Notes: generated by a model not told the origin, from the letters alone. A stretch of DNA of 64,000 nucleotides from Tubulanus polymorphus (GCF_964204645.1 NC_134025.1:15624001-15688000); one strand, 5' to 3'; shown: positions 46,001-60,495, numbered from the stretch's first letter. Translations and numbers: made by a program.

Positions 46001-47104
46001 ATGGTAACTCAAGAAGATAAATATACTTATGTAGTACATTATAGAATGTTAAAGTTTTATCTAAAACAAGGAATGGTTCTAAAAAAAGTACATAGATATA
46101 TTTCATTTAGTCAATCTAAGTGGTTAGAAAAATATATAGATTTTAACACCAAACAGAGAACTGAAGCTAAAACTGATTTCGAGAAAGATTTCTTCAAGTT
46201 AATGAATAATGCATTCTATGGTAAGACTTGTGAAAATATTAGTTATAATGATATTGAGTTAGTTAGTAATGGTAAAAGAATTAGACATTTACAAGTATAT
46301 CCTAAGTTCATTGGTAACAGAATATTTGATGAAAATTTAGCCGCAGTTAAAATGAGAAGAACATCCATGAAATTTAATAAACCAATCTATGTTGGCGCTT
46401 CAGTTTTAGAATTATCAAAATTACTAATGTATGAATTCTATTATAATGTATTACAACCACTTTTTGGAGAAATACATATAGAAATATTATATTTTGATAC
46501 AGATGCTTACATATTAAAGATAAAAACTAATAACATAACTGATGATTTAAAAACATTAAAACATCATTTTGATTTCAGTAACTATCCTAGAAATCATGAA
46601 TTGTTTAGCAATGATAATAAAAAAGTTCCCGGTAAATTCAAAGATGAATTAGGTGGTGAAGAAATGATTGAATTCATCGGTATTAGATCTAAAATGTATT
46701 CATATAAAACTTAAGAACATGAAGCTAAAAAGTTAAAAGGAATAACCAAAAGTGTAGTAGAAAAGAATATTAATTTCAAAGATTACATCAATTGTATATT
46801 CAATGAAGAAGTTAGAAAACATAAGATGAAATGTTTAAGATCTGAAGATCATGAAATGTTTATTGAAGAAATTGAAAAGATAAGTCTAAACCCATTTGAT
46901 GGTAAAAGATATATTTTAGATGATGGAATTCATACAGTTGCTTATGGTTGCAATTTAGATGAATACTTAAAATTTAAAAGAGAAGAAACAAAAGAGAACG
47001 AGATAATGAAAAGAATTCTAACGTGTTCATCAAATTTTAATAAAAATATGTATTATAAATGGAGAGTAAACAAACACACAGTGAGAACAATAAATCATTT
47101 CTAG
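43011..47104 (+). pseudogene. polB: Protein-primed family B DNA polymerase, intein-free allele (frameshifts at ~44090 and ~44580, stop at 46712)
   Basis: Zn[55 protein letters not shown]; uninterrupted YFDTD. Confidence 0.93.
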
Positions 47105-47412
47105 ATAGAATAAAAGATACTTCAAATGTCAAATCAGTAGATTATAAATTTAAGAAGTTAAAAGAATTAATAATCCATAAGAAATATCTAATTACAAATA
47201 TTGATACAGTAACTAACAAATATGGAGATAAATTAGTTATACACGTAGAATATGAAGGATTAAAAGGAAATACATATAAATTCAGAACATATTTACCGGA
47301 TAGATTTCATAGATTATCAAGTGAAGACTTAGAAGAATTATGTTCTGGTTGTTTCTATTTCGTATACAAAGGTAAGAATGAAAAAGGGCACCATGAAATA
47401 GATTTCGAATAA
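47059..47412 (+). CDS. Small Polinton protein, possible OB-fold ssDNA-binding protein
   Basis: FKKLKEL...Y.I...VTNKYG...TYLPDRF pattern directly downstream of polB. Confidence 0.5.
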   Translation: MESKQTHSENNKSFLDRIKDTSNVKSVDYKFKKLKELIIHKKYLITNIDTVTNKYGDKLVIHVEYEGLKGNTYKFRTYLPDRFHRLSSEDLEELCSGCFYFVYKGKNEKGHHEIDFE

Positions 47413-47429
47413 GAAAATATGTAAAATAA

Positions 47430-48188
47430 ATGGTAGAATTAAAAGAATACAGAATATTTGTAGATTCTAGAAAACTTACAAATTATAAATCTCATAATTT
47501 ACTAGTTCAATTAGATAGAGAATTCAAGAATTGTGTAGATTTAAAATTAGTTAATATAAGTTTATGTAATTCTTTTTACAATGTATTGGATAAAACTGTT
47601 GAACATAGAGTCTTTTTAATTCATGATAGAAATAAAAGTAAATGGTTTCATCTTTATCTTAAACCAGGATTATATAATTTAGATACATTAGCGCAGGAAA
47701 TTAATAGAAGAGCTCGGTTGAAAATGGGTGCATCTGCTGGATTTGGATTAAGACTGATTAAAAGTGATAGCTCCGATAAAATAAGAATGAAATTAGGTAA
47801 TGAAGATCAACATCAATTTCTAGTTAGAAAACCTTTAGCTAAAATTTTAGGAATAACCCCAGATGTAAGGATACGCAATGCTGATGCTCCACCAAATATA
47901 ATGCCTTTTACACACTTTTATATTTATTGCAAATTAATCGATCCTACAAAAACATTCGAAGCAACTAAAGATATAACTTGTAATTCTGGTTTAATTAACA
48001 TTTTACCATTGAAGAATGTTAAAGAATTTGGAACGCAAATAAATTATAATTTAACAGAATGTGATTTCAAACCATGCATTCCTCGTTTTAATAATTTTAA
48101 ATTAGAAATTAGAAATCACAATGGATACTTAATTGATTTAAATAATTTCCCTGTAATTTATGAATTAGTTATAAGATGTAGAGAGTAA
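47430..48188 (+). CDS. Minor capsid protein (penton, single jelly-roll)
   Basis: IFVDSR...VQLDRE...LVNISLCNSFYNV, LKPGLY, FYIYCKLI, LEIRNHNGYLIDLN...YELVI. Confidence 0.75.
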   Translation: MVELKEYRIFVDSRKLTNYKSHNLLVQLDREFKNCVDLKLVNISLCNSFYNVLDKTVEHRVFLIHDRNKSKWFHLYLKPGLYNLDTLAQEINRRARLKMGASAGFGLRLIKSDSSDKIRMKLGNEDQHQFLVRKPLAKILGITPDVRIRNADAPPNIMPFTHFYIYCKLIDPTKTFEATKDITCNSGLINILPLKNVKEFGTQINYNLTECDFKPCIPRFNNFKLEIRNHNGYLIDLNNFPVIYELVIRCRE

Positions 48189-48205
48189 TTTTTTTCACTA
48201 TATAA

Positions 48206-48550
48206 ATGAATATAACTGTTGGACCGAGTATATGTTTTGGTTTTGATTTTAAACATGGCAAAGAAATGAGAATTAAACTAAATGATGTAATTACTGATAT
48301 AAAAAGTAAATCATTTAACAATTCATCAATGATTAATAAAGAAAATTATAATAAAGAAAAAGTAATTGATTTAATTAAATCACCTTTAGAATATTATGAT
48401 TTAAATGAAGATGGAATTATCGATGATATTAAAAACATATTATCCAAAATATATGATAATCATAAAAGTAGTAATGAAATAAATGTTGAATTAATCATCA
48501 CTAAGATAACTAAATATTTTGATGATAGTAATTTTTTGATAAATAAATGA
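48206..48550 (+). CDS. Hypothetical Polinton protein
   Basis: Intact ORF preceded by the T-run/TAAATG motif. Confidence 0.6.
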   Translation: MNITVGPSICFGFDFKHGKEMRIKLNDVITDIKSKSFNNSSMINKENYNKEKVIDLIKSPLEYYDLNEDGIIDDIKNILSKIYDNHKSSNEINVELIITKITKYFDDSNFLINK

Positions 48551-58385: not shown

Positions 58386-58480
58386 TTAGTCAACAGTAAA
58401 CAATACAATATTAAAACAGATATATACAATCGGGATTACATTTTTGATATCTATATTACAAAGACCTTCAGTGTTATAAT

Positions 58481-59209
58481 TTATAATTTTGTCCAGAATT
58501 CTTTAATCACTGGATTGTTTCCAATAATTTCTTCAATTTCTGGTAAATATCTGACTACTTCACTAAATGCTAATCCTAATATTTTGAATTTTTCATATTT
58601 TATTAATCTACCTACTCTTCTCAGTTTTCTTTCAAAGCCGGCACTGATATCTATGTTCTTTTTAACCCACAGCCCCCAAGAAATCCCCTCATTTTCTTTA
58701 TCAAACATTGAAAACCCTATATTTAGATAACCCCCGAAAATGATGTGGTCCCATAGGTGATTTGCTTTTCTATTTAATATGGTTTTATAACTTTTTTTTA
58801 AGATATCAGTAATTTCAGCAAATGAAATAACTTCTACACTTTGTATTTCCAGAAAGTTTAAATGATCTGTGTCAATGATTAATTTAGATTTTAAAAACTC
58901 GTTCAACTCTTCTCCACTCATTTTCTTAGTTTTCGATTCTTTGAGTCCCAACAGCAATTTAAGTCGCATTGCTGGTAATTTTGGTAATTGTAGTTCGCGC
59001 GGTAATTGTTTATTATGTATTACATCACTCAAAATTTTCACCATTTCTTGATGATAGTCCAAATGTTCTTGTAATTTTTGTGAAGTTTGTTCGTCAATTA
59101 CGAGAGTTTTATCCTCCATTTCTATTGATTCCTGTGTTTCACTATCCATCGTTTCTGGTTCCTCTTCCGATGGTTGACTTGGAATTTCTGGTTGTTCTCT
59201 GTATTCCAT
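58481..59209 (-). CDS. Hypothetical protein (242 aa, acidic N-terminus)
   Basis: Intact ORF inside the Polinton. Confidence 0.65.
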   Translation of the reverse strand: MEYREQPEIPSQPSEEEPETMDSETQESIEMEDKTLVIDEQTSQKLQEHLDYHQEMVKILSDVIHNKQLPRELQLPKLPAMRLKLLLGLKESKTKKMSGEELNEFLKSKLIIDTDHLNFLEIQSVEVISFAEITDILKKSYKTILNRKANHLWDHIIFGGYLNIGFSMFDKENEGISWGLWVKKNIDISAGFERKLRRVGRLIKYEKFKILGLAFSEVVRYLPEIEEIIGNNPVIKEFWTKL

Positions 59210-59620
59210 TTTAATCTAAAAGATGTCGTGAAAATGAATTACTGTACTTAAATATGTTTAAAGGTTTCCCTACTTCATAATATATGTACTTACATTTAGA
59301 TTTAGAACTGTAAACTGTGTTTTGAGAGAGAATATCCAATACGTAGTATGTATGTGAAAGTTGATTTCTAACTGCCGACGTGGCGCACGTTCAACCAAAC
59401 TAATTACTTCTGCATGTTTGCCTGGATTGTAACAGATGTTCCTTTGTGATGTAATTGATTAATCCTTTTCAACTGAAATAGCACATTCGATCAATATTCA
59501 AATGAGGTGCGCCCCATTCAAGTGAATATGAAATACGGCACAGATGTTTTTGTAAACAACCTAATACAATTACATATAGGCGGTTTGACATAGATCGAGA
59601 GTAACCGGTTTTCTAAGCGC

Positions 59621-60274
59621 TTAAGCTCCAACGTATTTTTCATTATGTGTTGAATTCCATAATTCAACAAATGTCTTTGCTTTATCCAGTTGATCTAAAT
59701 ATAACTGTAAATCTAGTTTATTAGATTTAATTATATTTTCTTTCTTTTCTAAAGGCCTTAAATTTTTCCAGTTCCATATTAGCTTCTTATTATAATCATC
59801 ACTCATGTCAAATTTAGAAATCGGCAACACATGATCAATATGAAAGTATTCACCATAATTATCTATATTCATTTTATCATCGAATTGATATATTATCCAT
59901 GATATGAAAAATTCATCTGAACAACCCAATAAATTAGATAGTGTTTCTGAATGCGTTTCTTTGTTGAATAATTGTGTTAATCTAGATCTTAAACATTGTT
60001 TTAATCTAAAATTAAGATCTGTTTGATATCTTTCTCTCATATATTCTGTCATATAATCATTATAAGCTTCTCTATTATCATCTCGATATTGTTTGGTATA
60101 TAGTTTAGTACAAGTTTTACAGCAATATTGAAAACCATCTTTGCTAATCTTACGCTTATTAAATTCTGTTATAGCTAATTTATCTATTTCACATTTAGAA
60201 CACTTCTTGTAGTATATGTTTATGACACCAGTGTTATTTGTAATATTGATAGTTTGTAGTTGTTCTGATTCCAT
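59621..60274 (-). CDS. HNH endonuclease of the type common in large DNA viruses
   Basis: N-terminal CSKC...CKTC; LLGCS...NYGEYFHIDHVLPISKFD...NWKNLRPL...EN..KSNK. Confidence 0.8.
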   Translation of the reverse strand: MESEQLQTINITNNTGVINIYYKKCSKCEIDKLAITEFNKRKISKDGFQYCCKTCTKLYTKQYRDDNREAYNDYMTEYMRERYQTDLNFRLKQCLRSRLTQLFNKETHSETLSNLLGCSDEFFISWIIYQFDDKMNIDNYGEYFHIDHVLPISKFDMSDDYNKKLIWNWKNLRPLEKKENIIKSNKLDLQLYLDQLDKAKTFVELWNSTHNEKYVGA

Positions 60275-60495
60275 TTATTATACATATTTTTTTTACTAAA
60301 TTGATTTTAGAAGTTCAATGATTTATATCATGTATTATTTCAATCACACTTTACTTACACTTTTAATGTTTAAAATCTAACTCATACAAATATGAATATT
60401 GAAATAATGTTGTAGATATATACTTTTATATTGAATAATTTGTCAATTTAAATGTTATTCATTTATATTTTATTCATGTATATGAATGTTTTAAG
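60275..60495. repeat. Right subterminal inverted repeat
   Basis: Reverse complement of 42779-43010 with indels. Confidence 0.88.

Follow-up and report, generated by a model that had tools for sequence, protein, structure and literature searches.

Conserved poxvirus-like TAAATG elements at the gene starts of an invertebrate Polinton and one clade of its relatives

Introduction

How animal Mavericks express their genes is an open question, and their virions have never been seen. The question is raised by a decayed 18.4-kb Polinton/Maverick at positions 42338-60767 of a 64,000-nucleotide stretch of the Tubulanus polymorphus genome (GCF_964204645.1 NC_134025.1:15624001-15688000; hereafter the window), at most of whose gene starts a TAAATG motif overlaps the initiation codon. 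A first-pass annotation had noticed this motif together with upstream runs of T, and had proposed that the genes are wired for the transcription apparatus of a nucleocytoplasmic large DNA virus (NCLDV) instead of host RNA polymerase II (Pol II). Here we report that the TAAATG signal is real, conserved and surprising, and argue from its sequence that it probably represents a new variant of the promoter sharing known from virophages. Such a helper-type promoter would answer the question for one clade of Mavericks, whose genes would be expressed only where a cytoplasmic pox-like virus accompanies them. No published report of TAAATG promoters in Polintons was found in the full-text literature, subscription papers and supplements lying outside the search.

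TAAATG marks the gene starts of the element

All 13 ATAAATG sites quoted in the first-pass annotation were recovered in place, and a further gene-start TAAATG was found at 57847 (-). Since the TAA before the ATG is an in-frame stop favoured by the calling of open reading frames (ORFs), first ATGs after a stop outside genes served as the control, and the same bias was also controlled through the homology-defined starts of the major capsid protein (MCP). TAA|ATG occurs at 13 of the 16 hand-curated gene starts, as against 42 of 516 such non-gene sites (Fisher p 1.7e-11), and, when no curation is applied, in 12 of the 24 ORFs that reach 70 amino acids (fragments of broken genes included) versus 55 of 746 ATGs. 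TAG or TGA takes the place of TAA at none of the 16 starts. The three starts lacking the exact motif are 43011 and 59209 (-), which read TAAAATG, and 50985, which reads TTAATG after T7. The pattern T6-N4..7-TAAATG is matched 12 times, with overlaps, whereas shuffled sequences average 0.69 matches; the 12 fall on 8 distinct sites, and 7 of these are gene starts. Base composition as the cause of the enrichment is ruled out by the non-gene starts, by the shuffles and by the AT-rich loci outside the clade described below. Furthermore, the 13 gene-start TAAATG of the window are set apart from its 42 others by a matrix in whose training the window had no part (p 2.5e-6).

The motif also locates starts that mutation has obscured. 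The MCP frame (52458-53705 (+)) has no ATG, and the first-pass annotation had placed its mutated start at 52458; the capsid proteins of relatives start at the same column, and this site ranks second among the 697 TAAA sites of the element when scored with a matrix trained on relatives only. Likewise, ATAAATG at 55284 (-) and 56735 (-) opens short frames only, because those genes are broken, and the corresponding position is where intact relatives begin.

Two classes of upstream sequence

Most gene starts carry a bipartite element that is conserved in a clade of relatives and consists of a core of A/T, lying between about -7 and -20, a spacer of 6-8 nt and an exact TAAAT over the ATG. Two classes of core can be told apart. 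In class A, six or seven of the seven positions -7 to -13 from TAAAT are T, as against five at most in all 42 non-gene TAAATG. This is the upstream signal that the first-pass annotation had seen, and its nine runs of 6-9 T are all present, ahead of 22146, 48206, 48547, 48793, 49237, 49679, 50985, 52458 and 57330 (-). Class B, which it had overlooked, has an A-rich core; the exact form TTTAATAAAAAT-N8-TAAATG occurs at three genes against 0.00 expected, and looser forms stand at 47430, 60274 and 43011. An A-rich context is also frequent at TAAATG away from starts (23/139).

Class A sites precede gene 48206 (48189-48208 (+), T7-N7-TAAATG), gene 48547 (48532-48549 (+); 73 amino acids; class A likewise in the related loci L003, L006 and L007), genes 48793 (48777-48795 (+)) and 49237 (49219-49239 (+)), each with a hydrophobic segment, and the conserved gene 49679-50968 (49663-49681 (+)), which is interrupted by stops. 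They are also found at the ATG-less MCP gene (52442-52460 (+)), at the conserved gene 57330 (57328-57347 (-)), upstream of which no gene end adjoins, and at the gene for pPolB, the protein-primed DNA polymerase B, of a second Polinton in the window (22130-22148 (+)). The frameshifted gene 50985-52437 combines the T-run with the non-exact initiator TTAATG (50969-50987 (+)), and its L003 orthologue has TAAATG. Class B sites precede gene 47059 (47036-47061 (+), TTTAATAAAAAT-N8-TAAATG; a weak lead to single-stranded DNA-binding proteins), gene 47430 (47407-47432 (+); class B in L003 too), the zinc-finger gene 53738 (53715-53740 (+); class B in L001 and L004) and a truncated copy of the 3' part of the HNH-like gene (57845-57870 (-)). 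Finally, TAAATG lies at the start of the packaging ATPase gene (55282-55287 (-)), where its TAA doubles as the stop of the upstream integrase gene, the sole such case in the window, and a membrane-type gene that is frameshifted also begins with it (56733-56738 (-)).

Distribution and geometry among relatives

Relatives were drawn from a capsid alignment (the best 80 of 201 metagenomic loci, plus three genome-bin loci), their genes were called mechanically as ORFs of at least 100 codons, and the near-duplicates L002, L013 and L051 were removed before counts were pooled. The TAA|ATG trait is nearly all-or-none per locus. It occurs in 71 of the 83 genes of 22 motif-bearing loci, which belong to one capsid clade, versus 127 of 1982 spurious starts there, and in 71 of 100 genes once L015, L016 and L050, which belong to the clade but lack the motif, are counted in. 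Outside this group it is seen in 4 of 302 genes from 55 loci, and in 1 of 53 genes from the 15 of these loci with less than 40% GC. In a quick maximum-likelihood tree of 76 capsids, from which 8 loci with short matches were excluded, 20 of the 21 motif-labelled rows sit in a single 25-row MCP clade (approximate likelihood-ratio support, SH-aLRT, of 100). Loci whose GC content is 40-44% still keep the motif where the capsid gene starts, and it is tightly conserved across MCPs that are about 50% identical, which argues for ongoing selection.

The geometry is equally strict. Exactly two A separate the T from the ATG in 71 starts, and three or more in none. The base at -3 is T in 74 of the 83 clade genes, while A or G is preferred in other clades; most of the sampled relatives differ from the Polinton of the window in having a purine at -3 and other upstream words. 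In the pooled matrix, T reaches 79-80% at -10/-9 and A 56-62% at -15 to -13, and G is found at +4 in 48 of 71 starts (TAAATGG). Information is limited to the last 20 nt before the ATG, with no TATA peak farther upstream; directly before the ATG, AAATAA and other words match ATATAA in frequency.

In loci L009, L010, L011, L032, L055 and L077, the two genes of divergent pairs are separated by 14-30 nt and each strand carries TAAATG, which amounts to overlapping bidirectional promoters. Loci L050/L051, L015 and L016 lie in the same capsid clade and lack TAA|ATG; L050 instead has ATTTT..N7-8..TATAGA a few bases upstream of the ATG, resembling a late promoter of African swine fever virus (ASFV). 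In an AT-rich group outside the clade (L018, L024, L060, L061 and L082), starts read T-rich..TATAAAA(A)n|ATG, with at least three A in 28 of 60; this initiator is akin to that of the clade yet different from it. GC-rich clades (L020-L028, L035-L047, L073) show TTGAAC/ATTAAAC or CTGATATC words at -20 to -45, and TCTAAAACGT ahead of some of their capsid genes.

T-runs as a probable promoter core

The first-pass annotation had read TAAATG as a poxvirus-type promoter and had described T-runs as terminators of poxviruses and asfarviruses. Geometry and conservation support the former reading and not the latter. The spacing between T-run and downstream TAAAT is fixed, and T-runs are present at 22146 and 57330, where no gene ends upstream; since the run tracks the downstream ATG even there, it looks more like a promoter core than a terminator. 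No T6 run was found at the six convergent junctions inspected. Stop-start coupling was rejected as the source of the motif, the TAA being the stop of the upstream gene in only 2 of 37 tandem pairs. In addition, first genes and both partners of divergent pairs bear the motif.

Polyadenylation signals were also considered. AATAAA is not depleted within ORFs (181 observed versus 187 expected; 61 versus 60 in the window) and recurs about every 230 nt inside the ORFs of the window. An apparent excess near stops (38/75) vanished once the next promoter was masked, after which AATAAA showed no enrichment at 3' ends (22/75 versus 197/685). These results and the confinement of upstream information are compatible with a non-nuclear route, short of proof. 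CpG and splice-site counts did not discriminate.

Comparison with known promoters and virophages

For this comparison, intermediate and late promoters were taken as reviews describe them. The late promoter of vaccinia virus has TAAAT over the start codon, in most cases with a G after it, and ten bases upstream stands a conserved T; its intermediate promoter has TAAA, no T at -10 and an A/T-rich stretch at -15 to -19 (PMC11980589). The T-containing core is placed 5-7 bp from TAAAT (PMC5294985). Poxvirus transcripts are described as beginning inside TAAAT and as gaining their 5' poly(A) leader by slippage (PMC4542343). The first-pass identification of TAAATG with the poxvirus late promoter and initiator agrees with this description. 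Class A, with TAAAT(G) over the ATG, G at +4, T at -10 and a 5-7 nt spacer, matches the late layout position by position at the level of sequence. Class B, A-rich and devoid of the T at -10, likewise recalls the intermediate promoter, but its sequence fits that description less strictly, given the mixed starts and the class switches between orthologues reported below. Unlike in vaccinia virus, the promoters described here reside in an 18-kb integrated element without a detectable RNA polymerase (RNAP), and the two classes intergrade.

Virophages use the promoters of their helpers, and the types of mavirus-like endogenous elements (EMALEs) differ in motif (PMC10945749; bioRxiv 2022.07.28.501842). 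The Polinton resembles mavirus and EMALEs, Sputnik and Gezel-14T in that it encodes a capsid, integrates, is AT-richer than host DNA and carries one motif of NCLDV-promoter type before most genes; in both cases different lineages bear different motifs. The known helpers of virophages are Imitervirales in protists, with motifs such as TCTA and AAAATTGA, whereas the motif here is of poxvirus type, the capsid is Maverick-like and the host is probably an invertebrate animal. A further precedent is provided by polinton-like viruses (PLVs) with capsids related to those of group-2 Mavericks, found in entomopoxvirus occlusion bodies and proposed to be hyperparasites of poxviruses (PMC11296320). These viruses, AHEV_PLV1 and CBEV_PLV1, share group-2-related capsids with the Polinton. 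Unlike it, they are known from occlusion bodies, and AHEV_PLV1 yielded no integrase (PMC11296320). The accessible text of that paper contains no mention of promoter, motif or TAAAT. Similarly, the accessible parts of PMC8502044, bioRxiv 2026.06.19.733378 and PMC8097293 describe no promoter system for Mavericks or Polintons, the word promoter occurring in PMC8097293 alone, twice and for unrelated matters.

A proposed helper-transcribed Polinton

Profiles of RNAP, capping enzyme, TBP and TFIIB families had no match in 32 window frames and 56 further frames of the window and relatives, remote homologues being possible. Poxvirus-style post-replicative promoters in an element with no detectable RNAP point to a virophage-like Polinton that would be transcribed by the cytoplasmic RNAP of a co-infecting poxvirus-type helper virus. 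From the sequence evidence, we give this reading a probability of roughly 0.6, and hold it with somewhat greater confidence when it is widened to include an asfar- or egovirus-like helper. NCLDV-type transcription in place of host Pol II, as the first-pass annotation had proposed, would follow from it.

Under this model, the integrated copy would stay silent until a helper infects the cell, by analogy with mavirus and Cafeteria roenbergensis virus. The poxvirus-type polymerase would begin inside TAAAT and, by slipping on AAA, would give the transcripts a 5' poly(A) leader that the template does not encode, in place of the missing 5' untranslated region. The A-rich class, at pPolB, the zinc-finger gene, the HNH-like gene and the gene for the probable penton, would be intermediate-like, and the T-run class, at the genes for capsid and membrane-type proteins, would be late-like. 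The A-rich sites would thus serve replication and regulation first, and the T-run sites the virion genes afterwards.

Several observations weigh against this proposal. First, the link between class and function is loose: pPolB has a class B promoter at 43011 and a class A promoter at 22146, genes 47059 and 48206 change class in L003, and 21 of the 71 pooled starts are of mixed class. Second, convergence could account for the motif, because it is short and AT-rich. Third, scans of IMG/VR viral contigs recovered no helper virus: the promoter pattern yielded 4 loci with TAA|ATG at no more than two gene starts each, the deoxynucleoside kinase query yielded one contig, without the motif, and MCP, pPolB and VLTF3-like queries returned nothing relevant. 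Fourth, a helper is not invoked for the genes of coral polintoviruses, although their expression is described in about half of the samples (PMC11131425). Fifth, VLTF3-like genes occur in the motif-less relatives L060 and L050, and mriyaviruses combine VLTF3 with the lack of an RNAP and presumably use host nuclei (PMC11253617). Finally, short divergent gaps and weak polyadenylation signals do not discriminate, because they are also found in clades without the motif, and the depletion of TTTTTNT on coding strands (27 versus 57) was rejected as a signal, being unspecific: A6 runs are depleted as well (223 versus 319).

The strongest of the other explanations, which we nevertheless regard as unlikely, is that host Pol II transcribes the element in the nucleus with the help of an element-encoded late factor, either VLTF3-like or a cryptic mimic of TBP or TFIIB, TAAAT being a private initiator. 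It remains a rival because of the VLTF3-like genes of L060 and L050, to which a possible, non-significant match at 27273-27884 may be added, and because mriyaviruses, with VLTF2/3 and no RNAP, set a precedent (PMC11253617). However, the element has no match to VLTF3, TBP or TFIIB from one terminal inverted repeat (TIR) to the other, and both relatives with Pfam VLTF3 matches lack TAA|ATG. Transcripts from an initiator that overlaps the ATG would lack a leader if the polymerase did not slip, and slippage is described for poxvirus (PMC4542343) and yeast virus-like element (VLE) polymerases (PMC6211774); the frequent, undepleted AATAAA within the ORFs also speaks against a nuclear route.

A helper from elsewhere among the Pokkesviricetes, asfarvirus- or egovirus-like and not a poxvirus proper, appears less probable still. 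ASFV late promoters are bipartite as well, with TATTT at -15 to -11 and TATATA at the start (PMC5294985), many sites in the window read TATA-TAAATG, L050 of the same clade has the TATAGA arrangement, and parabasalid polintons are reported to have acquired genes from egoviruses (bioRxiv 2024.03.23.586382), although the accessible text of that preprint does not discuss promoters. Yet TATA is present at only part of the sites, and the invariant part is TAAATG (71/83), AAATAA being as common as ATATAA; an ASFV-type TATA initiator with TATTT describes L050 better than the window. ASFV late motifs are TATA-like and less defined (PMC8906413). TAAATG at the start codon is known for chordopoxviruses and an entomopoxvirus (PMC4542343, PMC3061580).

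That the promoters serve the poxvirus-like RNAP of a sister element or of a cytoplasmic linear plasmid, or are a relic of an autonomous ancestor, seems improbable. To our knowledge, yeast VLEs have neither capsid nor integrase. The VLEs pGKL1/2 resemble the Polinton in being AT-rich and encoding a pPolB, and they combine it with a pox-related RNAP and a TAAAN initiator at which slippage gives poly(A) leaders (PMC6211774). They differ from it by their own RNAP and capping enzyme and by the core ATNTGA, which at 20-40 nt is absent from the enriched words here. No RNAP matched any scanned frame, an argument that is weak for the relatives because most of their contigs are partial, and the relic version is contradicted by the tight conservation of the motif among divergent capsids. 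Last, a translation signal, in which TAA|ATG would stop read-in from upstream or allow re-initiation on polycistronic RNA and the T-runs would be terminators or AT-rich spacer, can draw on the in-frame TAA, the tight gene packing and several T-runs right after the previous stop codon, but is highly improbable given the rarity of stop-start coupling, the absence of TAG and TGA, the motif on first genes and on both members of divergent pairs, the constant distance from T-run to ATG and the lack of the motif in AT-rich loci outside the clade.

To return to transcription by a poxvirus-type helper, we consider it about an even bet that the whole clade of integrating animal Polintons consists of endogenous virophages that depend on poxvirus-type viruses and have copied a promoter code of two stages from this helper. 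If so, the virophage and provirophage idea would extend from protists to animals, Polinton promoters would predict undiscovered poxviruses in (probably marine) invertebrates and serve as a sequence tag for finding them, and other helpers would be tracked by those sister lineages that use TATAGA or TATAAAAA as initiator and encode a VLTF3 themselves.

Bounds, genes and setting of the element

Like other Mavericks/Polintons (Polintoviricetes, 'adintoviruses'), the element combines pPolB, an rve integrase, an A32-like ATPase, a double jelly-roll MCP, TIRs, a 6-bp target duplication and a length within 15-20 kb. The duplication, CTACAA, flanks it at 42332-42337 and 60768-60773, and both ends begin with TCACAGGGG. 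The left TIR (42338-43013 (+)) reaches the pPolB start codon and holds its A-rich promoter, and the right TIR (60272-60767 (-)), which has internal palindromes, reaches the start of the HNH-like gene and holds an A-rich TAAATG promoter; their alignment covers 430 columns at 90% identity and has large indels. Nested palindromes, unlike each other, occur in both (42369-42779 and 60496-60735), and a third copy of the first 17 bases of the TIR at 12170 (-) is possibly a further remnant. GC content is about 24%, versus about 38% in the surrounding DNA. No protease was detected in the element, which we therefore take to be of group-2 type. The copy is regarded as decayed because stops, frameshifts or a missing ATG disrupt pPolB, the capsid start, the ATPase, the integrase and three more genes.

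The pPolB gene (43011-47104 (+); PF03175, E 3e-15) is split into several broken frames. The AlphaFold model of the double jelly-roll MCP (pLDDT 84.8) matches in Foldseek the MCPs of Paramecium bursaria chlorella virus 1, Singapore grouper iridovirus and mavirus, with E down to 3e-17. The A32-like packaging ATPase gene (54766-55284 (-); PF04665, E 1e-10) has a premature stop near its 5' end, the rve integrase gene (55285-56367 (-); PF00665, E 8e-9) is broken, and an HNH/endonuclease VII-like gene lies at 59621-60274 (-) (phrog_1035, E 2e-16). Gene 47430, a member of a 25-protein family conserved across loci, has no match in Pfam, PHROG or NCBIfam; on the basis of a sequence motif, we presume it to encode a minor capsid protein (penton). 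The intact relative L003 encodes a deoxynucleoside kinase (10340-10981 (-); PF01712, E 2e-31) behind a class A promoter.

VLTF3 is considered diagnostic of Nucleocytoviricota (PMC11253617). Among the relatives, L060 encodes a VLTF3-like protein at 388-933 (-), above the PF04947 cut-off (E 5.5e-8), and L050 another at 6543-7049 (+), below it (E 6e-4). A second, truncated Polinton relative, at about 22.1-28.1 kb of the window, may contain a VLTF3-like gene (27273-27884 (-)). This frame has no Pfam match, was missed by a two-sequence profile, and aligns pairwise with E 0.013 to L050 and E 1.3 to L060; for its low-confidence model (pLDDT 43), 5 of the 27 top, non-significant Foldseek matches are named VLTF3 or late transcription factor. 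The pPolB gene of the same relative is interrupted at the YFD/TD motif by a LAGLIDADG intein in degraded form (25680-26765 (+)), about 50% identical to the intact same-site intein of pPolB P0188 and 35% identical to that of P0189, a 1676-aa family-B polymerase. Inteins are unusual in Maverick pPolB, and this one may reflect compartments shared with large DNA viruses.

Long interspersed nuclear elements (LINEs) and satellite DNA flank the Polinton and suggest an invertebrate animal as its host. At 13228-21267, a LINE reverse transcriptase lies inside an inverted duplication of 2.1 kb, perfect in sequence and accompanied by tandem copies of 804 nt, which is either a recent rearrangement or an assembly artefact.

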